Positions 11,567 through 54,135 of a stretch of DNA of 64,000 nt are shown one piece after another. The stretch spans positions 2,544-66,543 of the forward strand of contig JARBTQ010000006.1 of the NCBI GenBank assembly GCA_029240075.1, written 5' to 3'. Below the pieces are notes generated by a model. That model was given only the letters and a program-made list of their open reading frames with translations. It was not told the DNA's origin and did no database searches. Source of the DNA: Chlamydiales bacterium. Its GTDB lineage: Bacteria > Chlamydiota > Chlamydiia > Chlamydiales > JARBTQ01. The first letter of the stretch is position 1. Each line of letters starts with the position of its first letter. A program made the position numbers and the translations under genes.

Positions 11567-11591
11567 GCTAACAAACCCTACGGGAAAAATT

Positions 11592-12824: not shown

Positions 12825-12847
12825 GCATATGGGATAGAGGAATAATC

Positions 12848-13186: not shown

Positions 13187-13232
13187 ATTATATAGTTAAG
13201 TAAAATGAAATATTTGTATAGAAGAGGCTCTT

Positions 13233-13811
13233 ATGGAAATAGATAAAGATCGCTACATAGATCCAGAAAAGGAGCAGAGTGACATTGTAAAGAGCGCTCA
13301 AAAACGATTACAAGAATTGATGCAGCGTGAGATAGCAGTTATGAGAGAAATGCTATCTAGTATGCAAAGAGAACAAGATAGCTTATTGCTAAATAATGTC
13401 AATGTATTGCAGATGATAATGAAGGATAGAGAAGCTATTTTTGAAACTTTAATGAGCATTAGAAATGAAAGAATAGAAGAAGTGAAGCTTGTCGCAACTT
13501 TACTCTACAAAGCAAAAGGATACCCGCCCAATAATGATGGTCAGGAGAAAAAATTAGAAGACTTATTAGATCCTACGAGCTCTGAGACCTGTGAAATCTT
13601 TTTACTAAGAGACCAACTACTGGCTTTATTAGAGAAAATCAATGAGCAAAATAGCCGCAATAACCGTCTTATTCAGAATCGGATCAGGAATACGAAAGAA
13701 TTAATGCGACGCTTGTATCCGAATGAATTAGGCCCAGTCTATCAAGGAGACGGGAAATATGCGCAAAAAACAAAAATTACCACAATGACTTTGATCAATC
13801 ATGAGGGATAG
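13233..13811 (+). CDS. flgN: Flagellar export chaperone FlgN
   Basis: Helical protein with N..N..LI and late Y..xG motifs, immediately before flgK. Confidence 0.7.
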   Translation: MEIDKDRYIDPEKEQSDIVKSAQKRLQELMQREIAVMREMLSSMQREQDSLLLNNVNVLQMIMKDREAIFETLMSIRNERIEEVKLVATLLYKAKGYPPNNDGQEKKLEDLLDPTSSETCEIFLLRDQLLALLEKINEQNSRNNRLIQNRIRNTKELMRRLYPNELGPVYQGDGKYAQKTKITTMTLINHEG

Positions 13812-13814
13812 CTT

Positions 13815-16139: not shown

Positions 16140-16166
16140 AATAGTTATTAAGAAAGGAATCATAGT

Positions 16167-17117
16167 ATGTCTGAATCAGAAAAAGTTTCCAATGTTCAAA
16201 CGTTTGATCGTATGGTTTCCAGTATTAGGGAGCAAACAGCAAAGACTAGCCGTCTTGTAGAGCAGACGACTAGTGAACAGCGCCTTTTAAGTCCTGCAGA
16301 TGATCCTGTTAGTTACAGTCAATCAATGCACTACCAAGCTAAAATTGCGCATAACAAAGAATTTGAAAAAACATATAAAGCAGCTAATACATGGATTACA
16401 GCTACTTCTAATTATTTGGATCAAGTAATAGGGGGAGTTTATCTGCGTGCAGGTGAAATCGCAACAGATGCAAATGATGGTTCTAAAAATAGTCATGACA
16501 GACAAAACATGGCTGATGAAGTGGATGCATTATTAAATTCACTATTACAGCTGACAAATGGACAACTAGCTGGTAATTATCTTTTTTCAGGCTCTAAGAC
16601 AGAAACTCCCCCTTTTAGGGCGGAACGCAACGCAGATCAGCAGATTATAGCTGTTTACTATGAAGGGGATTCTTTTGTTCAAAAATATCGGATGAGTAAC
16701 GATGGAATGAGCCAAATAAACTTGATAGGTGGTAATTCTGGTAACGATAAAGCATTTGGATGCTTTATTGATACGAACTCTGGTGTAAATGTATTTAGTA
16801 CTCTTATCAAACTTCGAGATCGCATTAATGACAATATTATGGATAACTCAGCAGGTGATATGATTACCGAAATTCAATCTGTTACAGATCATTTAATTAC
16901 TGCTCAGACTCGCTTGGGGGGATTTCAAAAGATTGCTCAATTAGATTTTGAAAGGGTTGAAGAGCAAGGTAGCTATATGGAAAAGGCCTTAAAAGACTTG
17001 GTTGATATGGACCCTATACAATCTTTAATAGAAATGAATAATTTGCAAGTATTGTACCAGGCTTCTTTAGCAATGGCTACCCGTATAAGTCAGACGACTT
17101 TGCTAAACTATATGTAG
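16167..17117 (+). CDS. flgL: Hook-associated protein 3 FlgL
   Basis: SPADDPV, GNYLFSGSKTETPPF, YQASL....RI.Q.TLLNY. Confidence 0.92.
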   Translation: MSESEKVSNVQTFDRMVSSIREQTAKTSRLVEQTTSEQRLLSPADDPVSYSQSMHYQAKIAHNKEFEKTYKAANTWITATSNYLDQVIGGVYLRAGEIATDANDGSKNSHDRQNMADEVDALLNSLLQLTNGQLAGNYLFSGSKTETPPFRAERNADQQIIAVYYEGDSFVQKYRMSNDGMSQINLIGGNSGNDKAFGCFIDTNSGVNVFSTLIKLRDRINDNIMDNSAGDMITEIQSVTDHLITAQTRLGGFQKIAQLDFERVEEQGSYMEKALKDLVDMDPIQSLIEMNNLQVLYQASLAMATRISQTTLLNYM

Positions 17118-17377
17118 CATTAGAAGCTTATCTAAGATTTAAAATTTTTTAGGTCAGCTAATTGATAAATAATAGCTTGTTCCTAGCATAGATGGTTTCT
17201 AGCAATTAAAGGGGTAGATCAATTATTTACATGACTCTAGATTTAGCTTTCACTAATAAATTGAGCTACGCTAGTAAAAAAATAGATAAGTTTAAAAAAT
17301 GAATTTAAAGTAGGCTGAAAAAGTTTATCCTAACATTTTTTGATATTTTTGTTTCATAGCCGAAAAGAGGTACAGGC

Positions 17378-17827
17378 ATGCAACCATTAGAGAATGATTT
17401 TTTTGATACAAATGAAGGATGTAAGAATATCCAGCAAATCCTTTTTCCAGAGGGGCTACCAGGTTTAGAAAACGTAAAAGAATTTTTACTTATTGCGGAA
17501 GAGGAGGAAACTCCTTTTGTCTGGTTGCAAGCTGCCCACAATCCTGAAACTTCATTTTTAACAGTAGATCCTTTTATCATTCATCCAAGTTATTTACCTG
17601 ATATCTCTGAAGAGGATTTGCAGGCTGTAAATATCGGAGACTTAAGTGATGTCTTTCTCACTTGTATTGTGAATATGAGGAATAACCATGAGCAGGGAGT
17701 TACGGTTAATTTAGTAAGTCCCATTTTAATTAATTGGAAGAGTAAAGTGGGGAAACAAGTTATTTTACAAAACTACCAAGATTATTCTGTAAGATATCGT
17801 ATAGATCAAGCTCCAAAAAGTGCATAA
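17378..17827 (+). CDS. fliW: Flagellar assembly factor FliW
   Basis: FPEGLPGLE, PFVWLQ, F..VDPF...P.Y, TVNL.SPILIN....GKQVIL..Y. Confidence 0.93.
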   Translation: MQPLENDFFDTNEGCKNIQQILFPEGLPGLENVKEFLLIAEEEETPFVWLQAAHNPETSFLTVDPFIIHPSYLPDISEEDLQAVNIGDLSDVFLTCIVNMRNNHEQGVTVNLVSPILINWKSKVGKQVILQNYQDYSVRYRIDQAPKSA

Positions 17828-30551: not shown

Positions 30552-32180
30552 ATGAGCTTGGAGTTTTTAAGAGAATTTGGTCAGCAGCTTCTGAGTATCT
30601 GGAAGGAGATTAAAACTTATCAAAAGTTTACTGTCATTATGGTCGCTTCCTTGCTAGTAGCTATGCTAGTTCTTCTTGTAGCTAATGCTGCTGCTACGCG
30701 TTATACCCCTCTTTTTCCCGTTGATAGATTGACAATTACGGATGCGGCTGAGATTAAAGGTTATCTTGATGGACTGCGTGTTCCTTATAAAATTCAAAGT
30801 GATACATCGATCATAGTGCCCGAAAATCAAGTGCACCGCTTAAGGATGGACTTGGCAGCAGTGGGGCTACCTAAATTGCATTCAGGTAAAGGGTTCGAAC
30901 TTTTTGATACAAATACTTGGATCAAAGGGGAAAAAGAGCTACAAGTTTTAGAAATGAGAGCTCTTAAAGGTCAATTAGAAAGGGATATTGCCGAATATGA
31001 AAATATTAAAACGGCCAATGTCATTTTGGACATCGCTCCTCCTCGTCCTTTTGGTGGCTCAATGTATAAAACTAAGGCTTCTGTCATTTTAAATTTAATG
31101 CCAGGTGCAAGGCTCAGTTCTTCCCAGCTAAGAGCTATTACTTATCATGTAGCCGGAGCTGTAAGAGGATTAGTTCCTAATATGGTTGCTATTTCTGACA
31201 CTACCGGTAAGCTTTATCAAGCTATTGATCCAGAAGGAGATACAGACATGTTGCGTAGCGCTGAAGCTGGATTGGAGGAAAGGATCAAGTCTAAGGTTGA
31301 TGGTATGCTAGCGATGGTCGTAGGAGCAGATAACTTCTACTCAACTGTGCAAGTAACCATGAGTCGTAAGAAAGTTAGTGAAGAACGTAAAATTTACTCT
31401 GGTGTAGTAAATGGGGTAAATTTGGGAGATGCTGTTCCCATGTCTCTTACAGAATCTGGAATGCAAATGACTGAAAAAGAAAGGTCTGAGCAAGGAGCTC
31501 CTGGTTCTAATAATGAAGCTGTTGCTGGAGCTGTTATTGGAGGATCAACTGATCTGCTCAATCGCTCGGAAAACAGAAACCAACAGTATCGACAAATGGC
31601 CGTTCCTGTAGATCATGTTAAAATGCAATCTCAGCCTGGTGTTATCGAAGCTATATCGATTGGTGTACTGATAGATAAAACAATTACAGTTGGAAATGAT
31701 TCCGATTTGCCAGTTACAGATGTTATTGATGGAAAACGTCAAACAGAAAGAATTAAGCAAGAAATCTTAAATCAACTTTCAAAAATTATCGAAGGGCACG
31801 GTGTAAAAGCTATTCCAGCTGTAGACTTTGTCGAGTTTGACAAGACGTCTTCCAATAAGAGAGCTTCGGAAGAGAGCTGGGGAAGTATCATAGATCGAGC
31901 TACTCAAGTAGGTACAGGCGCATTTATTGTAATAACAGTTATGGCCATGTTATGGACATTCAACAGTTTTTGGCGCAAGCATATGATGCAACCTCCTGTT
32001 TTAGATAAAGAGGAAGAAGAGATCTCAGCTACGTATACAGAAGAGCCTTCAATTATAGAAGTGGAAGCAATGATCGAACTAATCAAGACAAGATTGCAAA
32101 GTGATCCTACTTTAGTTATCGATTCCTTAAAGGAATGGCTTGTTGAAAGTAATGAATTTAGCATCGGTAATACTAAGTAA
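30552..32180 (+). CDS. fliF: Flagellar MS-ring protein FliF
   Basis: Two TMs, VP..QV..LRM.LAA.GLP, GFELFD, RAL.GQL.R.I, ASVILNL, VAGAV.GL. Confidence 0.93.
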   Translation: MSLEFLREFGQQLLSIWKEIKTYQKFTVIMVASLLVAMLVLLVANAAATRYTPLFPVDRLTITDAAEIKGYLDGLRVPYKIQSDTSIIVPENQVHRLRMDLAAVGLPKLHSGKGFELFDTNTWIKGEKELQVLEMRALKGQLERDIAEYENIKTANVILDIAPPRPFGGSMYKTKASVILNLMPGARLSSSQLRAITYHVAGAVRGLVPNMVAISDTTGKLYQAIDPEGDTDMLRSAEAGLEERIKSKVDGMLAMVVGADNFYSTVQVTMSRKKVSEERKIYSGVVNGVNLGDAVPMSLTESGMQMTEKERSEQGAPGSNNEAVAGAVIGGSTDLLNRSENRNQQYRQMAVPVDHVKMQSQPGVIEAISIGVLIDKTITVGNDSDLPVTDVIDGKRQTERIKQEILNQLSKIIEGHGVKAIPAVDFVEFDKTSSNKRASEESWGSIIDRATQVGTGAFIVITVMAMLWTFNSFWRKHMMQPPVLDKEEEEISATYTEEPSIIEVEAMIELIKTRLQSDPTLVIDSLKEWLVESNEFSIGNTK

Positions 32181-32225
32181 GGTGGATAAGAACATGATAA
32201 GTAGTCAACTGAAAGGGAAAGCATA

Positions 32226-33290
32226 ATGGCAACCAAAACTGATATCGATACTATTTATAAAGGGCTAAATAACTCTCAAAAAGCAGCTTTATTGCTAATT
32301 GCGCTAGGACAAAAATGGGCAACAGAAGTTATGCGTCTTCTATCTGAGGATGAGGTCCGAAAGATTTCCTTTTGGATAAACCAAATGGGCTATGTACCAC
32401 AAGAAATTACAGAGCAAGTAATTAAAGAATTTTACGATAAATTGTCTCGTAAATCTTCTCTAGCTACTATGGGTGGGAAGGACTACCTATTAGATGTTCT
32501 TGGCGGGATTATGAGTGAGCAACAGGCAAACCAAATGTTAGAAGAACTTCTATCTCAAGAAAAACATGAAGTATTCCGTATTCTGAAACAAGTAGATCCT
32601 CTTCAATTGGCAGCTCATCTAAAAAATGAGCAACCTCAAACCGTAGCTCTTATGATGTCTCATCTGCCTGCGCAAAGAGCTGCAGCAATAGTAGGTGCCC
32701 TTCCAGAAGAGATGCAGCTAGAAATAGTTGTATGTCTAGCCAAGTTGCAGCAGTCTGACCCAGAAATTGTGTCTGCTGTTGAGCAAACGCTCAATGCAAG
32801 CTTAACTGAAGCTGCTAAAGTCGCAAAACAGCACCAAGATGCAGTTAAGCAGCTAGGGGGAGTTAAAGCTGTTGCTGAAATGCTTACTAATATTGGCAAG
32901 ACGGCAGAGAAGAATATCATGACAAAATTAGCAGAAAAGGATTTTGATCTAGCTGCTGCCATTAAGGAAATGATGTTTGTATTTGACGATATTATTTTAT
33001 TAGATGATAAATCACTACAAAAAGTGCTTAAAGATGTAGAACAAAATGATCTTATTATCTCCTTGAAAGGCGCCAACGAAACTGTTAGGAACAAGGTTTT
33101 CAAAAATATTTCTAAGCGTCAAGCAGAGTCTATTAATGACGAACTAGCATTTATGGGGCCTATGAAAGGCTCTGTCGTTAAAGCTTCTCAGCAAAAAATC
33201 GTTAACTTAATACGTAAGCTAGACGAAGAAGGGCAGATTGTCATCCAAAGCAAAGGTGGTGGTGGAGGTGACGATGACGTTGTTGTCTAA
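32226..33290 (+). CDS. fliG: Flagellar motor switch protein FliG
   Basis: QKAALLLIALG, GGKDY, EQPQTVAL, GGVKAVAEML, MFVFDDI, GPMK. Confidence 0.96.
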   Translation: MATKTDIDTIYKGLNNSQKAALLLIALGQKWATEVMRLLSEDEVRKISFWINQMGYVPQEITEQVIKEFYDKLSRKSSLATMGGKDYLLDVLGGIMSEQQANQMLEELLSQEKHEVFRILKQVDPLQLAAHLKNEQPQTVALMMSHLPAQRAAAIVGALPEEMQLEIVVCLAKLQQSDPEIVSAVEQTLNASLTEAAKVAKQHQDAVKQLGGVKAVAEMLTNIGKTAEKNIMTKLAEKDFDLAAAIKEMMFVFDDIILLDDKSLQKVLKDVEQNDLIISLKGANETVRNKVFKNISKRQAESINDELAFMGPMKGSVVKASQQKIVNLIRKLDEEGQIVIQSKGGGGGDDDVVV

Positions 33291-34044
33291 AGGTATTAAA
33301 AAAATCATAAGAGGCGCTGATGTCGAGGGAATAACATTCTGCACTCCTACCGGAGAGCTTGAACAGGAACAACAGAAACAGCGCCAAGAGCAAGAGCACT
33401 TAAAGACTTTAGAAGAATTTTGGCTGGATAAGGGGTTTCAACAAGGAATCGAAAGAGGTTTTGAGGAGGGTTGGTCCAAAGGGGAAGAAGAGGGTTACCT
33501 CAGAGGGCTGACTGAAGGAAAAAAAATAGGGGAAGAGGAAAGTAAGGAAAAATATATTGAAGAAGGTCGTGTTCAAGGATACGATAAAACTATACAAGAA
33601 TTGGAAGAGCTTTTTTCCCTATTTAAAAATTTAAACCACAAGCTAGAGAGGGAAAGGTTTGAACTTACAGATAAACTTCGCCCAGATCTTATAAACCTAG
33701 CAACCTCTATTTGCGAAAAAGTTCTGAAAAGAGATTTAGCACAGGAGTCTAGTATGGTACAGTTAATAGACTCTTTATTATTGCAGCATCAAAGACTTAT
33801 CAAAGAAGCACCTTTAACAATTGTACTGCCATCAGAGGAAGCTACAACTATTCGAAATTGGCTGGAAAAACAGCATTATGATTCAAATTCTCAATTAATG
33901 GATAAAGTTCAATTTCAGCCTGATGAACGTATGATTAAGGGAAATTGTCGTATAGAATTTCCTATGGGTATTATTCACTTTGATATAGAACGGCAACTTG
34001 CAGAAATAAAAGAAAAGACTCTAGCAGCAGAGGATTTAGAATAA
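33274..34044 (+). CDS. fliH: Flagellar export protein FliH
   Basis: Tandem GxxxG repeats, C-terminal G.CRIE...G; start set at ATG 33274 (GGAGG RBS). Confidence 0.88.
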   Translation: MTLLSKGIKKIIRGADVEGITFCTPTGELEQEQQKQRQEQEHLKTLEEFWLDKGFQQGIERGFEEGWSKGEEEGYLRGLTEGKKIGEEESKEKYIEEGRVQGYDKTIQELEELFSLFKNLNHKLERERFELTDKLRPDLINLATSICEKVLKRDLAQESSMVQLIDSLLLQHQRLIKEAPLTIVLPSEEATTIRNWLEKQHYDSNSQLMDKVQFQPDERMIKGNCRIEFPMGIIHFDIERQLAEIKEKTLAAEDLE

Positions 34045-34056
34045 AAGGGGGCAGCC

Positions 34057-35364
34057 GTGACATTGAGTTTAGCACGTGAGATATCGCAAGTAAAAAGATG
34101 GGAAGGAATTAGAATTAGTGGAAGAATCACTCATATTGTAGGATTGTTGATAGAATCGATAGGTCCCAAAGCTTGCTTAGGTGAAATTTGCTATGCTTAT
34201 GGAAAAAATGGACAAGCTATACCTTGTGAAGTCGTTGGTTTTAAGGACAAAAATGTTCTTTTAATGTGTTTAGGAGAAATGACTGCTTTAACCACTGGAT
34301 CTGAAGTTTATCCAACAGGGCACGTGCACAGAGTTGCTGTTTCTAATGCTATGTGTGGTAGAGTCTTAGATGCATTAGGTCGTCCTATAGATGATAAAGG
34401 CCCCCTTATCCCCGAAAAATATTATCCGGTTATTGCAGCTCCACCAGAGCCACTACGCCGCCGTAGGATTCATGATATTTTAAGTACAGGAGTAAAATCG
34501 ATAGATGCAACTTGTACTGCTGGACAAGGGCAAAGATTTGGCATTTTTTCTGGTTCAGGTGTTGGTAAATCAACCCTTATGTCAATGATGGCTCGTATGT
34601 CCTCTGCAGATATTAACGTTATTGCTCTTGTTGGGGAACGGGGAAGAGAGGTTCGGGAGTTTATAGAAAGAGATCTAGGTCCTGAGGGATTAGCAAGATC
34701 AGTAGTAGTGGTAGCTACTTCTGACCAAGCGGCATTACTGCGCTCAAAGGGAGCTTGCGTAGCTACTGCTATCGCTGAATATTTTAGAGACATGGGGAAA
34801 AATGTTCTTCTTATTATGGATTCTGTTACGCGTTATGCTATGGCTTTACGTGAAATAGGTTTAGCTATTGGAGAACCTCCTGCTACCAAAGGGTACACTC
34901 CCTCTGTTTTTGCTGCTCTACCAAAATTATTGGAAAGAGCCGGTAACTCTGATAAGGGATCAATTACGGGCATTTACACTATTTTAGCAGAAGGGGATGA
35001 TCTTAATGATCCCATCGTTGATACGGTTCGTTCTATATTGGATGGGCACATTGTATTATCTCGTAAACTTGCATCTGCTAATCACTTTCCTCCTGTTGAT
35101 GTTTTAGAAAGTTTATCAAGGGTGATGTCCGATATCACAACATCGACTCATTATGAAAAAGCAGGTAAGTTAAGAGATCTATTACAGGTGTACAAAGAAG
35201 CAGAGGACTTGATCAATATTGGGGCTTATGTATCAGGATCTAACCCTAAAATAGATCAAGCAATTAGTTTAATAGGATCTATTAGAAGCTTTTTAAAACA
35301 AAAATCTCATGAGCAGTTTACGTTTGTTCAGACAGAAAAACTTTTAAGCACCCTTATCAAATAA
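34057..35364 (+). CDS. fliI: Flagellar export ATPase FliI
   Basis: Walker A GSGVGKST, GERGREVREF, Walker B LLIMDSVTR, ILDGHIVLSR. Confidence 0.96.
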   Translation: MTLSLAREISQVKRWEGIRISGRITHIVGLLIESIGPKACLGEICYAYGKNGQAIPCEVVGFKDKNVLLMCLGEMTALTTGSEVYPTGHVHRVAVSNAMCGRVLDALGRPIDDKGPLIPEKYYPVIAAPPEPLRRRRIHDILSTGVKSIDATCTAGQGQRFGIFSGSGVGKSTLMSMMARMSSADINVIALVGERGREVREFIERDLGPEGLARSVVVVATSDQAALLRSKGACVATAIAEYFRDMGKNVLLIMDSVTRYAMALREIGLAIGEPPATKGYTPSVFAALPKLLERAGNSDKGSITGIYTILAEGDDLNDPIVDTVRSILDGHIVLSRKLASANHFPPVDVLESLSRVMSDITTSTHYEKAGKLRDLLQVYKEAEDLINIGAYVSGSNPKIDQAISLIGSIRSFLKQKSHEQFTFVQTEKLLSTLIK

Positions 35365-35372
35365 GTTAAACT

Positions 35373-35837
35373 ATGAAAGGGCAATTCAAATTTAGAATGG
35401 AAGCTGTGTTGACCCTTCGTACGCAGCAAGAGCAGATTGTACAAAAAGAATTATCTGCTTTACAAAAAGAACTGGATGAGGCATTTAATGTTTTAAAAAG
35501 TTTAGATAAGGAAAGATTAAGCGTAGAGCAAGAATTAACGGATACTCAAAGAAAAAGTCATGTAGCTACTCGTTTAGTAGAACATTTGCAATATCTAGAT
35601 TTACTTAAAAAGAAAATAGCATATTCGCAGGACGATGTCATTAAACTGCAGAATAAAATAGCCAGTAAAAGGCAAAAATTATTCGAAGCAAAGAAAAATA
35701 AAGAAGTTCTCGAAAAGTTAAAAGAAAAGCACTATTCTGATTGGAAAAATCATATCGATAAGATTGAATCTCAATTTTTAGATGAACTCGCAACTATTCG
35801 CTTTCACAGACAGGACTCAGGTTTGAAATATGATTAA
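35373..35837 (+). CDS. fliJ: Flagellar export protein FliJ
   Basis: FKFRME.VL.LR start, coiled coil, LEKLKEK, E...LDE.A end. Confidence 0.88.
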   Translation: MKGQFKFRMEAVLTLRTQQEQIVQKELSALQKELDEAFNVLKSLDKERLSVEQELTDTQRKSHVATRLVEHLQYLDLLKKKIAYSQDDVIKLQNKIASKRQKLFEAKKNKEVLEKLKEKHYSDWKNHIDKIESQFLDELATIRFHRQDSGLKYD

Positions 35838-36537
35838 ACAAATTAGCATTCTTATTTCTATTTTTATAATAATTTTAGCCGCTATAATTGGCGCTGGAAT
35901 GTATTTTAAGCAACAGCAGGCTATAGAGTCCGTATCAGCAAGCTCTAATCCGGCAACAACAGATAGCAGTGGTAAGGGAAAGAAAAATAGCGGAATATCT
36001 GATAGCGAAGTAGAGCTATCTCAAGGCGATCAGTCAAAGATGGATGAGCTGACAAGACAGGCAATAGCAGAGATAAGAGCTGAACAGCGGCTTAATTTAA
36101 CTATGACTGCTCAATTAAGAACTTATCGTACAATGTTGAACCAGTTGCAAAGTTATGCCAAAAAAGTTGAAAATGATATAGACATGGCTAGAGAAATCTC
36201 TAAAAATGACTTTCAAGAAAATGTAGAGCTTCAGGCTGGGTTATTTACTGGTAAAAAACCAGAATTAGTAGCAAGGCATTTAGAAGAGTTTGAACCGATA
36301 CGTATAGGTGCTATCTTAGCTAAAATGAAAGAAAAAGAAGCTGCACAAGTTCTTGATGTTTGGGCTATAGCAACTCCTATACAAAAAGGTGAGAGTTTTT
36401 ATAGAGATGTTATGGGTGCTTATCTGGCAAACCGTAGGCACGATATACATCCTGAGTTATTTTCAACCATTAATACAGAAAGTATCAATCAACCGACTCA
36501 GAATCCGGTTGAACCAGAGCAACCAGTTAGACCTTAA
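35830..36537 (+). CDS. YlxF/FlbB/MotE-like flagellar protein
   Basis: N-terminal TM, coiled coil, ILAKMKEKEAAQVL MgtE_N-like motif; directly after fliJ. Confidence 0.65.
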   Translation: MIKQISILISIFIIILAAIIGAGMYFKQQQAIESVSASSNPATTDSSGKGKKNSGISDSEVELSQGDQSKMDELTRQAIAEIRAEQRLNLTMTAQLRTYRTMLNQLQSYAKKVENDIDMAREISKNDFQENVELQAGLFTGKKPELVARHLEEFEPIRIGAILAKMKEKEAAQVLDVWAIATPIQKGESFYRDVMGAYLANRRHDIHPELFSTINTESINQPTQNPVEPEQPVRP

Positions 36538-36548
36538 CGGTAATATAA

Positions 36549-37940
36549 ATGCAAGTTGATAGGTTAAGATCTTTATTACAAAATATTAGACAGGACTTTT
36601 TGCTAGATCGTTGGGATTTTTTAGACGAACTAGCAAAAGAGCAGCTAGCTCTGGAAATAGATTCTTTAAACCTATCGCAAATAGTTCAACAGCAACAAAT
36701 TCTTAGAAAGAAGGTAGCTCCTTTAGATTCTGTATTAGAGTCTTTTCAAAACTACAGATATATTACTAGTGAAGCAATTCGCAAAGAACGCATTAAGATT
36801 TCATTTGATCCCCTTAGATATAAAATCGGTTGCTTAATAGTTGCAGGAGGACAAGGTACGCGCCTTAAATGGAATGGTCCTAAAGGAACCTTTCCTGTCT
36901 CTTTAATTAAACAAAAAAGTCTGTTCCAGCTCTTATCAGAAAAGATTGTAGCAGCTAGCCATTTGCATGGTTATAAGATCCCTTTAGCTGTTATGACTTC
37001 TCCTGAAAATCATCGAATTACTATAGAATTTTTTAAGAAACATTGTTTTTTTGGTTTGGATCCAGCCTATGTGGATTTTTTTCAGCAAGAAGAATTACCG
37101 CTATTGGATCTCTCAGGTAACCTTTTTTTAGAATCTACTAGTCATATAGCAAAAGGGCCTAATGGCAACGGAGAAGCTTTAAAAAGCTTTTACAGCGCAG
37201 GGCTTTGGAAAAAGTGGAAAAGCTTAGATATTGAGTCTGTATATTTTTCTCCTATTGATAATCCACTGGCTTTGCCTTATGATGCTGTTCTGATTAAATC
37301 ACATATGGAATCTCAGGCAGATGTTACTATCAAATGTGTGCCTAGAATAGATTTAAATGAAAATGTAGGCCTAGTTGTAAAAAAGGATCACAAGATTTCC
37401 GTTGTTGAATATTCAGAATTGCCGACGTTTGAGCAAACTGCTATTGATGAACAAGGAAATCCTAAGCACATATGTGCTAATATTAGTATTTTCTGCTTTA
37501 GTATGGATTTTGTGCAAAGGGCAGCTCTTGACTACACTGATCAAATGCCCTGGCATTTAGCTAAAAAGGCTGCTAGATATCTGAATGCACAAGGGATTAC
37601 AGATATGTCGCAGCAACCTATTGCATGGAAATTTGAAAAATTCATCTTTGATCTCTTACCATTTACAAGTAAGGTAAACATCCTCTTATATCCTAGAGAA
37701 AGTTGTTTTGCTCCTTTAAAGAATGCTAGAGGCAGTGACAGTTTAGAAACAGTGCAAGCCGCTCTTTTAAAGGCTGACTGCGATGCATACCATATGCTAT
37801 CAGGAATATATCCTTCTAGTGCACGTCGATTTGAGTTAGATGCTCAATTCTATTATCCGAACCTTTCAATGCAGGAAAATTGGTTAAGCCGTGCTTTGCC
37901 CCCGTTTCCCTATATTGAGCCATTCTGCAAGAGTTGTTAG
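36549..37940 (+). CDS. UDP-N-acetylglucosamine pyrophosphorylase, eukaryote-type (CT715-like)
   Basis: AGGQGTRL...GPKG, PNGNG, IDNPL, VVEYSE, KFEKFIFD, FAPLKN. Confidence 0.92.
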   Translation: MQVDRLRSLLQNIRQDFLLDRWDFLDELAKEQLALEIDSLNLSQIVQQQQILRKKVAPLDSVLESFQNYRYITSEAIRKERIKISFDPLRYKIGCLIVAGGQGTRLKWNGPKGTFPVSLIKQKSLFQLLSEKIVAASHLHGYKIPLAVMTSPENHRITIEFFKKHCFFGLDPAYVDFFQQEELPLLDLSGNLFLESTSHIAKGPNGNGEALKSFYSAGLWKKWKSLDIESVYFSPIDNPLALPYDAVLIKSHMESQADVTIKCVPRIDLNENVGLVVKKDHKISVVEYSELPTFEQTAIDEQGNPKHICANISIFCFSMDFVQRAALDYTDQMPWHLAKKAARYLNAQGITDMSQQPIAWKFEKFIFDLLPFTSKVNILLYPRESCFAPLKNARGSDSLETVQAALLKADCDAYHMLSGIYPSSARRFELDAQFYYPNLSMQENWLSRALPPFPYIEPFCKSC

Positions 37941-45962: not shown

Positions 45963-48900
45963 TCAACGCTTATAAAATAGACTCTGTAAGTGATCGGGAA
46001 AACGGTTTGGTTCAGCAGGTTTTTGTAACGCTAAATTGTTAGGTAAGCTAGTAGAATCAGGATTTAATGTTGCAGGCTGATTTACCGTTAAAGTGATATT
46101 CTGAATTGTTGTCATGTTGTAGCCGTTATCATACATGACCTTTAATAATCGATTCGCATTAACTGGTTTAGGTTGAGTACTGTAGTAAATAATGTTTTGA
46201 GCAATGGCTGTAACAATAGCGTCTGTGGCTTGATTGTTAAATACTATAACCAAAGCTTTTGATATTGCTGTTGATTTCGCGTAATTTCCTACTAAAGTAC
46301 TACCATAATAAACCAGGTTATTCTGAATATTAATTTCGGTAGGATCTGTGCCTTGATAGCGAATGTCTAGGCAATCACCAATTTGATACCCATTTGCAAA
46401 TTGAAAAACTAATTTAGAGCTAGCTGCAGGGATATTGCCGCTTGATATGGTCATAGTTGGGCTCACCGCAATTAAGCCAGAGCTCAAAGCATAGTTTGTT
46501 ATTGGATTAGGAATGTTTACGCTAGGTGGAGCGGGCACAGCAGTCGAGATTACAGTTGTTGTGTTTTCGGTGCTTCCATCATCACATGCAACCGTAAAAG
46601 TGGTCATTTCTGCATTTCCAATGGAAACTCGCTGAGGAGCTGGTTTGAAAACAAGCTTTCGTATTGCTGTTTGTGCATTTGCAGCTGTGCCTGTATATGT
46701 ATAAAAACCGCTACCTATATCTGAAAATCCAGAACTTATGAGTGAAGTCCCAGTGAAATTTCCTTTAGCTGCAGTATCTATAGTTACAGTGTAAGTATGT
46801 ATTTGGACTATATTAGGGTCTGTGATTGTAAATGAGGTAAAAGGGGAGCATGTAGCGTTATCATTGACGGACTGATTGGCTAGGCCTCCTCCGAATAATG
46901 TGGGTTGGTCTAGGGGGCTAGAAATTACCGTCGTTGTTGAGTCTGGTGTAGCTCCATCATCAGCACTAACAGTAAATATAGTTGTTTCTGTTGTTCCGAG
47001 AACTACTCTATTGGGAGTAGGTTGAAATATTAGCTGTCTGATTGCTGTTTCTGCATCGGAAGGCGATCCTGTAAATTCGTATATCCCTCCACCAATACTA
47101 GTAAATCCAGAAGAGTTCAGAGAAGGTGTAGTGAAAGATCCTTTACCAACAAGGTCTAGACTAACAGTATAGGTACTTATTTGCCCCAAAGCGCTTGCTG
47201 TGATTGAAACTGTACTGAACGGTGAGCAGGTAGTATTATCATTTATAGTTATTCCAGTAGATGTGTTTGTAAAAGTGCTAGGGGCTCGGGCTGCTGTGGA
47301 GGTAACACTGGTTGTGGCATCGAGAGTAGCTCCATCATCTGAAGAGATAGTAAAGGTTGTAATTTCAGTCATTCCAACTGGAACACGATATTGTGTTGGT
47401 TGGAAAACAAGTTGCTGGATAGCACTCTGCGCTTGAGATGCTGTCCCAAGATAAGTATAAGTTCCAGAGCTTGGATTCATGAATCCTGACGTACTCAAAG
47501 AGGTTGAGGTGAAAGAGCCTTTAGCTGAATCATCAAGAGTGATGGTGTAAGTATTTGTCTGTGTTGAATCAGGATCTATAATTATAAATGAAGAAAAGGG
47601 GATACATGTTTCATTATCATTTATAGGATTACTTATCCCCCCACTAAAAGTCGATGGATCATTTACTGAAGTTGAGATGACAGTCGTGGTCGCCTCACTA
47701 AGAGCCCCATCATCACTTGAAACTGTGAACTGGGTTGTTTCTGTGGATCCAACAGCAACTCTATTGGGAGTAGGGTTAAAAACTAATTGCCTAATTGCTG
47801 CCTGAGCAGCAGAGGCTGATCCTGTATAACCATAAGATCCGCCACCCATATCAACAAATCCAGACGTTGTTAAGGAAGCAGCAGTAAATGATCCTTTAGC
47901 AGCATCATCTAGAGTAATTGTATAAGTGCTGTTTTGTCCTAAACCAGTTGTAGTTATTGTAAATGAGCTAAATGGGGAGCAAGAACTTGTATCTGTTGTT
48001 GTCTGTCCTGCTTGAGCGTTATTAAACAAGCTGGGAGACGGCATTGCTGTTGTGTTAATAGTAGTTGTAGAGTTCGCAGTTGATCCATCATCACATGCTA
48101 CTGTAATTACAGTTGACTCTGTTGTTCCAACGTTTACCCGATGAGGTGTTGGTTGGAACACTAGCTGTCTAATTGCTAATTCTGCATTAGCTGCCGATCC
48201 AGTATAAGTATATATTCCAGACCCGGCATCTGTAAATCCGGAGGCAGTTAGAGAAGCTGCAGTAAACCCACCCTTTAAGGGGGAGTCTAAGGAAACTGTA
48301 TAAAGGTGAGATTGCCCTATATCAGGATCTGTTATACTAAAGGATGAAAAAGGGCTACAAGTTGCATTATCATCAATATTTGAAGTAATCCCATTTGCAA
48401 ATACATTTAAATCTTCAATCGATGTTGCTACAATAGTAGTATTGCTATCAGAAATAGAACCATCATTACAACTTAGTTTTAAGGTGGTTGTTACTGTTGA
48501 CCCTACAGCAACTTGATTTGCGGTAGGTTTGAATTCTAGAGCTCTAATAGCAGCTTGAGCTTCGGAACTAGTTCCTGTAAATGAGTAAGAGCCTCCTCCA
48601 TTATTAACAAAACCTGTGGCTGTTATAGAGGATGCTGTAAATATGCCTTTTGTACTATCGTCTAAGTTGACTGTGTAGGTATAACTTTGACTTAAGTCTG
48701 TATTAGATATAGTGACAGTGCTGAAAGGGTAACAAGTGGTATTATCATTGATAGATTGAGCATTAAGTGTATAGTTAAATCTTGTATATGGTTGTAGGTT
48801 AACCCAAACTTTGGAGGTTTTACTGCTGCTAAATGAGTCATTGAAGCTATAACTAAAAGAGGTAGACGAGTAGTCAGATCTTCCATCCATATTCGGATAA

Positions 48901-51900
48901 TAAACAACACGACCGAACTCATCAGTTACAGCCGTATTTATGGAATTAATTGCTGCCCCACAAAAATTAGTCGCAAGACTATTGTATTGGTAGAGAATTC
49001 CTTGTGTTGGCAAATCTTTAATCATGGCATAAGTAGAAGTGCTAGCAAGACTGTAACCTTGAAGAGAGATAATGACGTATTGGTTAGAAGTTAGGTAGTA
49101 TCCATCGTTTAGTTTTGCTCCTGATAAAGTAATAATAGGATCCTCTATACTAGTAGAATTACTATTACCTAAGATCCCATGTAAAGAATTTCCCGAATAG
49201 TCATACACATACTGGCTCAAATCATTATTCATTCGGTAAGAAGCGACTAAGTTAGAGCTTCTATCTATAGAACTACTGTTCATCATAGACTGAATCTGCG
49301 ATACAGTTTTAGCCTCATTCCAAACATTTAATTCATCGATGGCTCCATTAAAATAACCTATTCCTGCTTCATAAACCCCTATCAAAAGGTTTGCTGTTGA
49401 AGTTGTTGCCGCTGCAGTTCCTGTCCAACTGCAATTAGACTTCTGTTGTCCATCGACATAAATAGTCCCTCCCGAGCTGTCTACTACAAAAACAACATGA
49501 TGCCAGTAGCCATCTTTAATCGATCCGCCATTGACTCCTTCTCCAGAAATATCACGGATGTAGTTGCTGCTGTCTTTAAAATAACGGGCGTAGATATTTC
49601 CATTTTTAAGATAGATCTGGTAACCATTATTACTACCTGTTGTATATTTACTTAGGATTCCCCGGCTAATCCCGTCATTAGTGGAGGTCTTTACCCATAC
49701 GGCTATACTTAGGGGATAACTGTCTAGTACAGAATTATGACTTATAGTTACAACATCATCTATACCGTCAAAATAAAGGGTATGATTGGGAACATAGGTT
49801 AACAATGGGGCTAATTTCCAAGTAGGATCGCTAGATTCTGGGATCGCATTGCCTCCCAAGACACCAATATTGCCGACTAAAGAGGAGTCATAGACATAAT
49901 CGCCAATTCCAGTACTTAAAGGGTAATAAGCTATCAAATTTGTTTCAGAACCACTTAAGGGTTGTAACATATTAGATAAAATCTGACCTTGACTCCTTGC
50001 TGTCGACCATAGTCTTAAATCGGCAACATGTCCTTTAAAGTAGTTCGCCCTGGAAATTGTGCCTAGATACTTTTGGGGGATGGCATAGGGAGTAAGCGAT
50101 CCTACAGTGTTGCTTGCTGCTAATTGTCCGTTTACATATAATTTATAAACGCTATTGTTATAGGTAGCTGCGATGTGATTCCACTTGCCAAAATTTAAGA
50201 TATCAGGTGTAACAATACTAACTGCTGTTGAGCCCGTGCCAAAGGAGGCTTTAACCTTAAGGCCTTGGACCCATAAGCTAGGAGCTAATTGATTAGGGGT
50301 CCCAGAGTTCATATTCCCTATCAACTCATAAAAGGTATTGTCATTTGATGTATACTCTGCTGTAATCCACATCTCCTGTGTAAACTGGTTTCCTAAAGTT
50401 GGGGCTAAACTTCCAACATTAAAGTCTAAGTAGTCGTCCGAGCCATCAAAATACAAGCAGTAATTCTTAGAAAATCCATCTGCTACAATTCTTTTTGGAT
50501 CATCACTAGATGATGTTAAAGAAGAGCCTAAATAACCGTTATTTTTATTTTGTGAGATATCATAAACTCTTTGTCCAATTCTCTCGTCAAAACGGTAGTA
50601 ACCTGTAACAAAAGATCCATTAAAAATAGTGAGTTGAGTAACAAGACCTTGGAAGTAGCCTGACCCGTATCTTCCAATATACAACGGTTGTACAGTTGTA
50701 CAAGTTCCACTTGCACCTGTCCAACTTTCCATGGCTAATAAATTACCATCCACAAATAGCATTCCTCCCGAAGGATCCACGCTAAGGGCTATTTGGTGCC
50801 ATTTTCCGTCATTAATCACCCCTCCATCCATTCCGAATGCCCCAGTGCTAATATAGCTTGTGCCGTTGACATGGTAGCTTGCATAGACATGGCCATTCTT
50901 TAAATATACAAGATAGCCATTTAAGGAGCTTGAATCGTACTTAGTGACTATTCCTCTTGCAGTACTGTCGTTTGTAGTCGTTTTTACCCATACGACTAAA
51001 GTTAAAGGATAACCATTGAGATTATTATTATGAGGAATAGTTACATGGTCATTAATTCCATCAAATTGGAGGCTATATGATGTTGCACTAGGTAGATCTG
51101 GCATGTAAAGTTTAATCAAATGAAGTGACTTACCGTTATGATCGGCCACATAAAGGACATTATTACTGATTTCGACTCCATAGGGATCACTAAATGTAAT
51201 ATTTTCTAATCCATTTTTAAGTTCTTTGACAATATACGCTTCGGCAGGAGATTGGATATTTATTATCGAAACAGCGCTCTCAGTACTGCTACTGACATAC
51301 GCGTAGAAACCTTGAATTGTTATGGATGTTAGGCCTGATAGGTAGTTGCCGTTAGAAGAGTCACTCAAAGTTTTGACTAAAATAGGATTGCTGGGATTAG
51401 AAACATCGTAGATCTGTAATGAATTTCCTGAGTAACCAGCTACATATAGGTAATTATTTTTCACTGTTAAAGCACTGGGGCTAGCAGTAACACTTGTAAT
51501 TTCGGTTACGTAGCTTAAAGCTGCGGGATTAGAGATATTGATTATAGAAACTTTACTACCAGTATTAATAGTATAAAGATAGTTTCCTTCAATACTTAAG
51601 CTATTAGGACCTTGTATTGTAGTAGGAGTCCCTAAATGTGTATTATCTGTAAATTCACATCTTAAAATAGGCGATGTAGGATTTGTAATATCTATGACTG
51701 TAATTGTGTGATCAGCCCCAGCATGTGCGTATAGATAATTTTCTACAATCTTAAGGGCGTTAATTCCTCCTAATTTAGTGTAAGAGTAGGTATTAACTGT
51801 AGATCCTCCATCCGTGATGGTTGCTATAACTGTAGGCGATGTAGGCGTAGATGCATTAATGATTTTAATCCAATTTCCTGTGCTACTTGCAATATAGATA

Positions 51901-54041
51901 TAGTTATCTTTTGCTGCTATAGCACTGAGGCTGCTACCAAATCCTATTTCTGAAACGGGCGATGGATCCATGGGATTGGATATATCGAAAATTGTAAGCC
52001 CTTTTTCTGTATCAGAAATCACGTAAGCATAGTTTCCGAGTACTTTTACATCGCGCAACCCATCTAGCAAAGTTGCACTTGTTCCATCGGTTATTTTTGC
52101 AAGAAATTGGATATCTGGAGTAAAACTTTGGTTATGCTCCAGTGCAATTTGATCAGATTTAACTTTATACAATAAAGTTTCACCAGCATTAGTGCCATAA
52201 GTATCACTGCCTGAAACCCCAATAGCAGCATAAGTGTGATTGATAGCTACTGAAGCTCCTAAATAGTCATTGCTTGCTCCAGAAGATTGAGTTAAGATTT
52301 TGACTTGAGACCAACCCGCAGTCTTTTTCTCAAATAAGTAAGCTGCTCCTGAGTTAGTGGTAATAAAACTATTGTTTTTAGCTCCTACGAGTAAGGAATT
52401 TCCTTTAAGAGCCACTGAACAACCAAAATTATCAGATGCGACTGTCTCTAGAGCTTGTATTTTGGCACTTTGCTGCCAACTATCATTACCAAGCCCTTTT
52501 TCAAAGATATAAACAGCTCCTTTTCCAGAGGCATTTAGACTGCCTACTGCTATGCGACTGCCACTTAATGCAAGAGAAGCCCCAAAATTGTCATTTGCAG
52601 CAAGGTCGGCAGCTACAATTCTTTGAGATTCAACCCAATTACTTCCGTTATAATCGAAGATATAGACAGCCCCTCCTGTCCCATTATTTGGAGCGCCGAT
52701 AATAGCTCTATTCCCGTGTATTGCTACGGAGGAACCAAAGTAATTGTTGGCACCTGGGCTTCCAAATGTAGGGATAAGCTTGCTAGACCAGGAACCTGTA
52801 GCCGTATTATAAATATAGGCAGCACCACGGTTGGAAGAATCCCCTTTAACTCCTACAATTAGAAAATTTGAATCTAAGGCAAGAGCAGAACCAAAATAGC
52901 TACCAGACGAACGAGTTGGTAGTGCATTGCCAAATGATACAGCTGACCAGGTTCCCGATGATTTTTGGTATAAAGTGACATCTCCCGCATTTGAACTAGC
53001 TCCTTCATCTGAAGCTGCTGCCCAATTTCCAGATATGGCCACTTTAGTTCCAAAGGTACTGCTGGCAGAAGTGATAGTAGTAACCTTAGCCCAAGCACTA
53101 CCAGCAAAATCATGAAATTCGATAATTCCATTACCACCCGAAATAAGTTGAGTGTCATCCATTGCGTTTGCTTGACCAAAGTTAAGTTTGGTTGTGTCAG
53201 AACTGTAAATATGTTGTGGAGGATCAACGATCGGCAATAAACTTTGATCCATAAGAGCCGTACTTCCACTCGAGTCTTTAGCACCTAAATCTAATGGAGA
53301 GTAAAATGTACCCTCCCATTCATATAGTAATTTTGTATTAAAGTAGATTTCTGAAGTGTCGATCTCTTTCTGGGAAAATTTGCCTAAATGGAAAACTTTG
53401 TCTAAAGTCCAATTTTTGATTAGAGGTGTATTACCTATTTTTCCAGTTGCAAGAGCTATAGTACGACCTGTGATCCACTCTAACCGATTGAGGAATTCAA
53501 GCTTACTCGAAGCTTTTCCTAAATCGCATGCAAGAAGATCAATACGACCTTCTCTTTTTATGGACTGACCTATATAGCGCCAAAATTGTTTTAAATCTTT
53601 TTGATATAATAAAGATGAAAGTGAAACAGTATCTTTTACTGTCAGTTGAAAAGAACCTACCTCTGTTCCGTGATTTGCAAAAGCTATACTAGAAGCTTCT
53701 TTGCCATCTAATGCTAGCATAACTTTATCTTTAAGCTCGTTTAAAGTTGTAGTATCCGGGTCGTAATTTACAATAAGAGAATAACCTCGTGCCGCTGTAA
53801 TTAATTTTTCATAGTCTGTAATGTTATTCGCTATGACAAGAACACGAGGATGTAGAGAGTCAGTAACTTTGGTATTAGGCTCGGTTATTGTACGAAAACC
53901 ATCCAATGTATCGTCTAAATTAGAATCAAACTTTGTCTTATCTATGTACTCTTTTGAATTATCCTGAAATAAGAGTTCAGATAAGCCTGCTCCATCAAGT
54001 ACAATCCGCTCTTCTAGCTTTAATAAACTAAATCTACTCAT
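45963..54041 (-). CDS. Giant multidomain surface protein/adhesin (LEPR-XLL-like motif, DUF4347-like, FG-GAP propeller, LVIVD propeller, three LamG-like domains, cadherin-like repeats)
   Basis: LEERIVLDGA; HG...FQL...IDLLACDLG; repeated FGxSVAxxG...GAxYIF; repeated IxDISNPxxP with YxYV; LxFDGxDD...WHHV/WNHI; six ~125-aa tandem repeats; start set at ATG 54041 (GAAGGAG upstream). Confidence 0.88.
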   Translation of the reverse strand: MSRFSLLKLEERIVLDGAGLSELLFQDNSKEYIDKTKFDSNLDDTLDGFRTITEPNTKVTDSLHPRVLVIANNITDYEKLITAARGYSLIVNYDPDTTTLNELKDKVMLALDGKEASSIAFANHGTEVGSFQLTVKDTVSLSSLLYQKDLKQFWRYIGQSIKREGRIDLLACDLGKASSKLEFLNRLEWITGRTIALATGKIGNTPLIKNWTLDKVFHLGKFSQKEIDTSEIYFNTKLLYEWEGTFYSPLDLGAKDSSGSTALMDQSLLPIVDPPQHIYSSDTTKLNFGQANAMDDTQLISGGNGIIEFHDFAGSAWAKVTTITSASSTFGTKVAISGNWAAASDEGASSNAGDVTLYQKSSGTWSAVSFGNALPTRSSGSYFGSALALDSNFLIVGVKGDSSNRGAAYIYNTATGSWSSKLIPTFGSPGANNYFGSSVAIHGNRAIIGAPNNGTGGAVYIFDYNGSNWVESQRIVAADLAANDNFGASLALSGSRIAVGSLNASGKGAVYIFEKGLGNDSWQQSAKIQALETVASDNFGCSVALKGNSLLVGAKNNSFITTNSGAAYLFEKKTAGWSQVKILTQSSGASNDYLGASVAINHTYAAIGVSGSDTYGTNAGETLLYKVKSDQIALEHNQSFTPDIQFLAKITDGTSATLLDGLRDVKVLGNYAYVISDTEKGLTIFDISNPMDPSPVSEIGFGSSLSAIAAKDNYIYIASSTGNWIKIINASTPTSPTVIATITDGGSTVNTYSYTKLGGINALKIVENYLYAHAGADHTITVIDITNPTSPILRCEFTDNTHLGTPTTIQGPNSLSIEGNYLYTINTGSKVSIINISNPAALSYVTEITSVTASPSALTVKNNYLYVAGYSGNSLQIYDVSNPSNPILVKTLSDSSNGNYLSGLTSITIQGFYAYVSSSTESAVSIINIQSPAEAYIVKELKNGLENITFSDPYGVEISNNVLYVADHNGKSLHLIKLYMPDLPSATSYSLQFDGINDHVTIPHNNNLNGYPLTLVVWVKTTTNDSTARGIVTKYDSSSLNGYLVYLKNGHVYASYHVNGTSYISTGAFGMDGGVINDGKWHQIALSVDPSGGMLFVDGNLLAMESWTGASGTCTTVQPLYIGRYGSGYFQGLVTQLTIFNGSFVTGYYRFDERIGQRVYDISQNKNNGYLGSSLTSSSDDPKRIVADGFSKNYCLYFDGSDDYLDFNVGSLAPTLGNQFTQEMWITAEYTSNDNTFYELIGNMNSGTPNQLAPSLWVQGLKVKASFGTGSTAVSIVTPDILNFGKWNHIAATYNNSVYKLYVNGQLAASNTVGSLTPYAIPQKYLGTISRANYFKGHVADLRLWSTARSQGQILSNMLQPLSGSETNLIAYYPLSTGIGDYVYDSSLVGNIGVLGGNAIPESSDPTWKLAPLLTYVPNHTLYFDGIDDVVTISHNSVLDSYPLSIAVWVKTSTNDGISRGILSKYTTGSNNGYQIYLKNGNIYARYFKDSSNYIRDISGEGVNGGSIKDGYWHHVVFVVDSSGGTIYVDGQQKSNCSWTGTAAATTSTANLLIGVYEAGIGYFNGAIDELNVWNEAKTVSQIQSMMNSSSIDRSSNLVASYRMNNDLSQYVYDYSGNSLHGILGNSNSTSIEDPIITLSGAKLNDGYYLTSNQYVIISLQGYSLASTSTYAMIKDLPTQGILYQYNSLATNFCGAAINSINTAVTDEFGRVVYYPNMDGRSDYSSTSFSYSFNDSFSSSKTSKVWVNLQPYTRFNYTLNAQSINDNTTCYPFSTVTISNTDLSQSYTYTVNLDDSTKGIFTASSITATGFVNNGGGSYSFTGTSSEAQAAIRALEFKPTANQVAVGSTVTTTLKLSCNDGSISDSNTTIVATSIEDLNVFANGITSNIDDNATCSPFSSFSITDPDIGQSHLYTVSLDSPLKGGFTAASLTASGFTDAGSGIYTYTGSAANAELAIRQLVFQPTPHRVNVGTTESTVITVACDDGSTANSTTTINTTAMPSPSLFNNAQAGQTTTDTSSCSPFSSFTITTTGLGQNSTYTITLDDAAKGSFTAASLTTSGFVDMGGGSYGYTGSASAAQAAIRQLVFNPTPNRVAVGSTETTQFTVSSDDGALSEATTTVISTSVNDPSTFSGGISNPINDNETCIPFSSFIIIDPDSTQTNTYTITLDDSAKGSFTSTSLSTSGFMNPSSGTYTYLGTASQAQSAIQQLVFQPTQYRVPVGMTEITTFTISSDDGATLDATTSVTSTAARAPSTFTNTSTGITINDNTTCSPFSTVSITASALGQISTYTVSLDLVGKGSFTTPSLNSSGFTSIGGGIYEFTGSPSDAETAIRQLIFQPTPNRVVLGTTETTIFTVSADDGATPDSTTTVISSPLDQPTLFGGGLANQSVNDNATCSPFTSFTITDPNIVQIHTYTVTIDTAAKGNFTGTSLISSGFSDIGSGFYTYTGTAANAQTAIRKLVFKPAPQRVSIGNAEMTTFTVACDDGSTENTTTVISTAVPAPPSVNIPNPITNYALSSGLIAVSPTMTISSGNIPAASSKLVFQFANGYQIGDCLDIRYQGTDPTEINIQNNLVYYGSTLVGNYAKSTAISKALVIVFNNQATDAIVTAIAQNIIYYSTQPKPVNANRLLKVMYDNGYNMTTIQNITLTVNQPATLNPDSTSLPNNLALQKPAEPNRFPDHLQSLFYKR
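46530..48765 (-). repeat. Six tandem ~376-bp (125-126 aa) cadherin/Ig-like repeats within the adhesin
   Basis: Recurring C.PF...KG.FT...A..AIR.L.F.PT...DDG at ~375-378-bp spacing; boundaries approximate. Confidence 0.9.
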
Positions 54042-54135
54042 AGCTAACCTGACTACTCCTTCCCCTGCCAATCATGATGTTTTTGAGGTTCATCCCCCTA
54101 TACAGGAATGTAGTCGATTAGACTTTGTGGGTCAA

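Follow-up and report, generated by a model that had tools for sequence, protein, structure and literature searches.

The analysed stretch of DNA (the window, 64,000 nucleotides; contig JARBTQ010000006.1, positions 2,544 to 66,543) belongs to a Chlamydiales bacterium and contains a block of seven unbroken open reading frames (ORFs), all on the + strand, in the order fliF-fliG-fliH-fliI-fliJ-orf6-UAP. The gene fliF (30552–32180) encodes an MS-ring protein of 542 amino acids (aa), full length including the FliG-binding tail, which matched TIGR00206 with 163.8 bits (cut-off 129.75) as well as PF01514 and PF08345. It is followed by fliG (32226–33290), encoding a rotor/switch protein of 354 aa that scored 294.5 bits against TIGR00207 (cut-off 226.7) and has all three Pfam FliG domains, namely the N-terminal (FliG-N, PF14842), middle (FliG-M, PF14841) and C-terminal (FliG-C, PF01706) ones. 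The ATPase tether gene fliH (PF02108, 39.6 at a cut-off of 24.1) occupies positions 33274–34044; its longest ORF begins at 33238, and the most likely start is the ATG at 33274, which is preceded by GGAGG, rather than the TTG at 33238. Then come fliI (34057–35364), encoding a flagellar export ATPase of 435 aa whose top score was on the flagellar FliI_clade2 model (629.2, just below the cut-off of 629.8), and fliJ (35373–35837), encoding a central-stalk coiled-coil protein of 154 aa that is above the cut-offs of TIGR02473 (68.5 against 50.45) and PF02050. The block ends with orf6 (35830–36537; 235 aa, one N-terminal membrane segment) and a non-flagellar gene (36549–37940) for a eukaryotic-type UDP-N-acetylglucosamine pyrophosphorylase-like protein (UAP; PF01704). 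Successive ORFs from fliF to UAP are separated by 45, about −17, 12, 8, −8 and 11 bases, so the gene order and tight packing proposed in an earlier sequence-only reading of this DNA were confirmed. A three-domain FliG, a FliF with the flagellum-specific C-terminal ring domain, and FliH, FliI and FliJ in order are the features of a flagellar operon. By the established functions of these families, the MS ring would be made of FliF and the torque ring of FliG, with FliH, FliI and FliJ forming the ATPase complex. The counts of sigma-70 promoters and terminators at the block were at chance level, and a sigma-54 consensus was not found upstream of fliF above shuffles in the window, nor consistently in relatives.

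The genome containing the window (G000) is chlamydial and 98% complete. It includes gate and export genes (FliO/P/Q/R, FlhA/B/F) as well as FliE, rod, hook, FliK, FlgD, L and P rings, FliM/N, MotA/B, sigma-28 and eight flagellin-family matches, with the flagellar set distributed across six or more contigs. Gate, rod, hook, ring, switch, stator and flagellin genes are all present; the genome thus encodes a complete flagellum, and the organism is predicted to swim. A second set of genes encodes an injectisome with its own SctN, SctV, SctU, SctR and SctJ. The injectisome ATPase SctN (contig C33) is a separate gene with 54% identity to FliI of the window and groups with chlamydial SctN; the possibility that the window block is an injectisome locus was rejected. 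A second flagellar cluster (flgF, flgG, flgA, flgH, flgI, flgN, flgK, flgL and fliW) is located at 8102–17827 of the window. Marine chlamydiae (Collingro 2017, PMC5604735) likewise carry flagellar and injectisome genes on scattered loci, with the same flgFGAHI-N-KL-fliW cluster.

To survey the site across the phylum, the NCBIfam Chlamydia "FliF" model PRK05934 was applied to 400 chlamydial genomes (G005 is outside this count and the FliG-C count given below). The window has two matches to this model: FliF aligns with its front part and FliG with its final 50 positions. Matches were found in 64/400 genomes, including 23/23 of family f3, 28/29 of family f4 and 2/46 of family f6; a weak match was found in G155. 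According to the model cut-off and public protein names, family f4 with its genus g4 is Chlamydiaceae with Chlamydia. Families f3 and f4 form one clade in the RpoB tree (support 100), and we infer that f3 is Ca. Sororchlamydiaceae, the sister of Chlamydiaceae (PMC9666466). Sixty loci of carriers were compared, along with 40 neighbourhoods of UAP. The UAP gene lies after orf6 in 7 of the 9 chlamydial genomes whose fliG and fliI are intact, directly after fliJ in 20/23 f3 loci (the rest being one insertion and two contig ends) and directly after fliJ in 24 of the 25 fetched Chlamydiaceae loci (exception G191). Among 79 non-chlamydial loci from many phyla, 60 of them with at least 2.5 kb of downstream sequence, UAP was never found after fliI. 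In one Phycisphaerae locus (L170:1-1080), a UAP homologue lies upstream of fliF, that is, on the side opposite to the chlamydial position. In the C. trachomatis locus L070, consecutive accessions were AAC68310 (pyrophosphorylase), AAC68311 (hypothetical protein of 121 aa) and AAC68313 (FliH-like), with FliF in the cluster of AAC68314; together with the assignment of CT717 to fliI and CT719 to fliF (PMC10597470), this agrees with the order CT719–CT715 given in the sequence-only reading.

The UAP protein itself is a member of the AGX/UAP1-type family, as its PF01704 match indicates, with N-acetylglucosamine-1-phosphate as a putative substrate. The closest solved structures are eukaryotic-type UDP-N-acetylglucosamine pyrophosphorylases (E 1e-47), so the name given to this gene in the sequence-only reading holds at the family level. 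Its C. trachomatis orthologue, with which it shares 39% identity, is named both ways in the databases.

The compared loci form a graded series at one site, from intact through the long and the short fusion to lone relics and, finally, the empty site. The intact stage is represented by G000 and seven more genomes, all with flagellin, MotA, rod and FliM; one flagellated chlamydia, G103, has two FliM genes (contigs C14 and C20). The genome G346 (L036, L297, L300, L302) carries unfused, diverged fliF-G-H-I-J together with fliOPQR, flhBA, flhF and fliM/N, and flagellin, MotA and the rod domain were not found in it; on gene content, it represents an earlier stage of reduction. Lone relics directly before UAP are a diverged full-length fliG in G333 (L071:9338-10276), a single fliJ in G244 (L258, ~5000-5400) and a fliF with an 80-aa FliG-N piece in G277 (L041:2-1198). 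A search for relics in 37 non-carrier sites found the G244 FliJ alone. Within f4, G191 (L088) has a fused fliF 88 bases from UAP and fliH-I-J are gone, and in G140 (L260) the site is empty and a second FlhA was not found. A gene of the heptosyltransferase family lies before fliF in several block carriers, and in 28 of 37 block-less genomes it is within 700 bases of UAP; it abuts UAP without the block, and the site therefore reads as empty. In the reduced loci, orf6 is the gene that was cleanly lost in place.

The fate of fliG differs from the one proposed in the sequence-only reading, according to which fliG was deleted in place. In f3 and in Chlamydiaceae, the protein encoded before fliH ends in ~45–70 residues of FliG-M (23/23 and 24/24 loci, respectively), which shows that fliG was truncated and that its middle domain now forms the C-terminal end of a fusion with FliF. 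With intact chlamydial FliG proteins as a profile, positions ~106–177 mapped to this C-terminus in f3 and f4, and the profile matched 49/49 fusion loci; in the window FliG, the surviving portion corresponds to residues ~110–177. The C-termini of CT719-type proteins were above the cut-off of Pfam FliG-M in 7/7 tested cases, and hhalign of FliG-M against the fusion tail gave a probability of 96%. In two other genomes, G214 and G376, FliG positions ~112–230 are at the C-terminus of the fused protein. This long fusion (657–659 aa) retains the whole periplasmic FliF, the first tail helix and all of FliG-M. In the short fusion of f3 (342–459 aa), the second membrane segment is joined straight to FliG-M and the third ring domain is without the long collar insert; in the shortest fusion, that of f4 (332–402 aa), the first ring domain is also missing. 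The best match of the predicted model of the f4 protein was to FliF rings. Bergeron 2016 (PMC4768692) left residues 165–235 of the fusion unassigned and did not settle the polarity of the change; in our alignment, these residues correspond to the third ring domain of FliF after deletion of the long collar insert. A deletion of the whole fliG, with CT719 being merely a shortened FliF, would agree with the absence of a separate fliG gene at the site in f3 and f4 and of FliG-C (0/29 f4 genomes; one weak f3 match in an unrelated frame of 2,746 aa), but it is refuted by the FliG-M matches and retains practically no probability.

The descent of the Chlamydiaceae genes was assessed using phylogenetic analysis. 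Among the 108 ATPases of one tree, the chlamydial FliI proteins, 46 in all and including those of Chlamydiaceae, make up a single clade (SH-like approximate likelihood ratio test (SH-aLRT) 100) apart from 11 chlamydial SctN proteins, with a support of 99 for f3 plus f4. This tree came from a quick search, and 28 of 80 outgroup loci were left out as near-duplicates or partial. With a concatenated set of FliF, FliH and FliI (746 columns, 28 taxa), the approximately unbiased (AU) test rejected, under two models, each of five trees that put Chlamydiaceae among the outgroups (p ≤ 0.0009). The shared UAP anchor, which was present in both groups and in 0/79 loci elsewhere, the single FliI clade and the joint FliF, FliH and FliI grouping bear out the earlier proposal that the genes of the pathogens are relics of this operon. 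Several points weigh against it. The outer neighbours on both sides of the window block are rearranged, so that UAP is the one remaining anchor there; a basal position of Chlamydiaceae within the chlamydial clade was not rejected (p 0.17), which does not fix their exact place; the FliI branches of Chlamydiaceae are very long; the constrained tree searches were short; the RpoB tree, which does not include G376 (rpoB frameshifted) and G235 (rpoB not found), is unrooted with an open backbone; and FlhA of Chlamydiaceae was well apart from that of the flagellated chlamydia in Collingro 2017 (PMC5604735). On balance, the CT719–CT716 genes of Chlamydia are very probably vertically inherited, cut-down descendants of the operon of which the window block is the intact form, encoding the rotor and the export ATPase.

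If the block had instead been inserted beside UAP by late horizontal transfer and then moved between chlamydial lineages, the empty site would be ancestral. The FliF model is found in just 64 of 400 genomes, most families have the empty site, and Pillonel 2018 questioned the age of the chlamydial flagellum (PMC5826181), all of which would suit such a transfer. Nevertheless, carriers and the lone relics in G333, G244 and G277 share the site in distant families, the gene-tree groups agree with the RpoB groups, and the GC content of the block matches that of the whole window. The presence of other flagellar genes on at least six G000 contigs is beyond single transfers, and a flagellated ancestor was reconstructed in Dharamshi 2023 (PMC9816063). 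We therefore regard late transfer as improbable.

The FliF-FliG fusion was published for Chlamydiaceae in Bergeron 2016, where it was considered possibly ancestral (PMC4768692). An ancestral fusion, or one that arose once and gave rise to the separate genes or to the second group of fusions, would account for the nearly equal FliG position (~105–115) at which both fusion types begin, and one clade of all fusions was not rejected by the Shimodaira–Hasegawa (SH) test (p 0.15–0.19), a result that counts against two separate events. However, the outgroup loci and nine chlamydial genomes of different families have separate full-length fliF and fliG, and the fused forms lack FliG-N and FliG-C, which could not be re-made. 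A single fusion clade was rejected by the AU test (p 0.011, 0.006). In the concatenated tree, G214 and G376 group with the unfused G346 (99.9), and in the RpoB tree, G214 is far from f3 plus f4. The FliF side of the junction differs between the two fusion types, and the FlhA deletion common to f3 and f4 is absent from G214. The distribution of these forms indicates that the fusion is the derived state; it likely arose twice, in f3 plus f4 and in G214 plus G376, because of the grouping with G346, the AU result, the different junctions and the FlhA difference. The ancestral or single-origin alternative thus has little left in its favour, marginally more than late transfer. Both fusions remove a joint that is also removed in a mutant of Salmonella with a deletion-fusion of FliF and FliG (PMC6445934), which would explain the recurrence. 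That mutant keeps FliG-C and swims, whereas both chlamydial fusion types are without this stator-facing domain.

The motif RKxIEKIKxxxY is common to the window FliJ and the protein of 114–135 aa encoded at the CT716 position, between fliI and UAP. With a profile built from the f3 FliJ proteins, the window FliJ was detected at 2e-20, and the 24 Chlamydiaceae proteins at the CT716 position (6.5e-13 to 0.021) all scored better than any other ORF in a background of 2,941 sequences that included the genome's own injectisome genes. A two-helix hairpin was predicted for the CT716-type protein (predicted local distance difference test score, pLDDT, 89). At the Pfam FliJ cut-off, 2/3 f3 proteins and 0/9 Chlamydiaceae proteins pass, the latter with two weak matches. 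The FliJ assignment has to be weighed against a number of results: Pfam FliJ recognised none of the six Chlamydia (g4) proteins tested, and a direct profile comparison of the window group with the Chlamydia proteins was weak (58% probability, E 1e-4, 63 columns). Whole-genome searches with the direct profiles found the right ORF in 2/4 Chlamydiaceae (E 0.02–0.06), and the Chlamydia profile did not find the window FliJ. A fold search with the CT716-type model returned nothing at E ≤ 0.001; its hits were no more than generic coiled coils, with YscO at rank 4. The f3 proteins bridge the window FliJ and the Chlamydia proteins, and on this basis CT716 is almost certainly a FliJ, for which binding to the FliI ring and to FlhA is only predicted. 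This upholds the earlier suggestion by position, motif, hairpin and the stepping-stone f3 profile, and not by Pfam FliJ; the profile check proposed for CT716 against 35373–35837 was weak when direct and positive through f3. In Stone 2010, FliJ was stated as not identified (PMC2830194). In one UniRef cluster name, the protein of C. muridarum already appears as "Flagellar FliJ protein", the C. trachomatis and C. pneumoniae entries are labelled hypothetical, and in the literature searched "CT716" occurred in one paper, solely within the range CT716-719.

The reduced sets were then examined for the remaining flagellar genes. In f3, no flagellin (0/23), MotA (0/23), rod/hook domain (0/23) or FliM (0/22) was found; for MotA, a chlamydial protein served as the query, since Pfam MotA_N missed even the motA of G000. 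A second FlhA was found in 21/22 f3 genomes and a flagellar-type FliP in 20/22; a fliO-P-Q-R cluster is present where checked, flhF and sigma-28 are kept beside flhA, and FlhB ends before the NPxH cleavage motif in 5/5 checked proteins. FlhA is without residues 427–476 (G000 numbering), a 50-residue deletion that we take to be probably the chaperone-docking D2 domain, in 6/6 f3 and 2/2 f4 proteins (L303–L306, L317–L320). In Chlamydiaceae, flhF is gone from between flhA and sigma-28, and a second FliP (0/7) and a second FlhB (0/2) were not found. The P-loop GxGKS/T is kept in 46/46 chlamydial FliI, and none of the f3 loci has a broken frame. The absences in f3 are tempered by the incomplete assembly of many of its genomes and by the chance of missing a diverged gene.

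These gene sets suggest the following course of events. In lineages losing swimming, a deletion that spanned the boundary of fliF and fliG and preserved the frame would have removed the joint between the FliF tail and FliG-N and fused FliG-M to FliF; the stator-facing FliG-C and orf6 would have been lost. In the f3 lineage, the gate in the membrane (FliO, P, Q, R, FlhA and the cut FlhB) and the ATPase complex would have been retained as a filament-less export device. A ring, gate and ATPase without motor or filament point to export rather than motility, and the f3 set likely exports protein rather than serving swimming. Chlamydiaceae would then have lost the fliP-type and flhB-type gate genes and, being without a second FliP and FlhB, would need to borrow the injectisome gate; this fits the reported binding of C. 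pneumoniae FlhA to the injectisome's CdsU and CdsL (PMC2830194). In the same study, C. pneumoniae FliI hydrolysed ATP, and FliF residues 271–341 were needed for the FlhA pull-down. This region coincides with the FliG remnant (284–337 in the profile match), which likely acts as a cytoplasmic handle holding FlhA; modelling of this remnant in complex with the cytoplasmic part of FlhA from G146 gave a score of 0.00 and no verdict either way.

The reduced sets in f3 and Chlamydiaceae could also be jobless and in slow decay, given that G140 and most families do without the block altogether and that G191 lost fliH-I-J. For f3, they could still serve swimming, as the flagellar genes of the sister family have been read as a sign of motility (10.1101/577767, PMC9666466). 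Decay is at odds with the open frames, the conserved P-loop and the recurrence of one streamlined set in 23 f3 genomes, and swimming is at odds with the stator, rod, hook and flagellin not being found in the f3 genomes. Decay or swimming is accordingly unlikely, though it fares better than the alternatives weighed above. The whole proposal is that the flagellum was exapted at least twice to a second, filament-less type III export device via the same FliF-FliG-M fusion. The sister family would have a self-contained, non-motile version (FliF-G ring, FliOPQR-FlhA-FlhB gate, FliHIJ ATPase, FlhF, sigma-28), and the Chlamydia of humans and animals a smaller one with CT716 as the ATPase stalk, which plugs into the injectisome gate. 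We give this proposal about even chances.

A number of other features of the window and of related genomes were noted. The label "ylxF/flbB-like" given earlier to orf6 is no more than a lead: its position after fliJ and its membrane segment are compatible with YlxF/FlbB/MotE, and no Pfam family was found at E ≤ 0.001. Weak matches were obtained to same-position genes in two outgroup loci (E 3e-4, 1e-3), MgtE_N matched weakly in 1/6 orf6 members (E 0.16), and the look-alikes in Atlas structures were of the MotE/MgtE_N type (template modelling (TM) score 0.45–0.57). Conservation of orf6 is limited to flagellin-bearing chlamydiae among those examined. Long flagellins (~550–620 aa) and short flagellin-family proteins (~270–300 aa) are encoded at 54523–56166 of the window and on contigs C16, C30 and C34 of G000, and each flagellated chlamydia has 4–12 flagellin-family matches. 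The hook protein FlgE of G000 (L312, G000:C51:28500-36000) is 931 aa long and its gene lies between two FliK-domain genes (630 and 254 aa); FlgE-like frames of 926–970 aa are present in relatives. An adhesin-like protein of 2,702 aa with DUF4347, FG-GAP, LVIVD and laminin-G domains is encoded at 45963–54071.

Earlier publications describe flagellated chlamydiae and propose flagella as ancestral (Collingro 2017, PMC5604735), reconstruct a flagellated ancestor (PMC9816063) and report the fusion in Chlamydiaceae (PMC4768692). The portion of Collingro 2017 considered here presents neither fliF–fliJ synteny with Chlamydiaceae nor a FliF or FliI tree. The derived state of the fusion, its likely double origin and the graded series at one site are likely new. 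The literature searches turned up no paper that shows the anchor common to these loci, the intermediate forms, a recurrent fusion or the identity of CT716 with FliJ; articles behind closed access and unseen supplements may hold such reports. The Chlamydiaceae cluster (CT719–CT716, Cpn0860–0857) shares its order, anchor gene and orthologous proteins with the window (PMC4768692, PMC2830194), which differs in having separate full-length fliF and fliG as well as orf6. Flagellar export parts without motility, for which secretion or another use was proposed, are also known from the Buchnera basal body (PMC3459982) and the FliO/P/Q/R-FlhB-FlhA "CORE" (PMC6456723). Unlike these, the f3 set has a fused FliF-FliG, an FlhB cut before NPxH, the 50-residue FlhA deletion and a coexisting full injectisome, and no rod or FliM was found in it.

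What the few flagellar genes of Chlamydia pathogens do, and where they come from, has for years been described as cryptic. An intact operon at the same site would settle their origin and the direction of change, and it provides the reference by which the reduction series can be ordered. The analysis also names a candidate for the missing ATPase stalk, CT716 and the protein at the Cpn0857 position, and allows the known pull-down of FlhA by the FliF tail to be re-read as putative binding by the FliG remnant. The closest environmental relatives of Chlamydiaceae are predicted to be non-swimming. The step from a flagellum to a secretion device is thought to be the origin of injectisomes, and the living intermediates at this site may be a rare replay of it.

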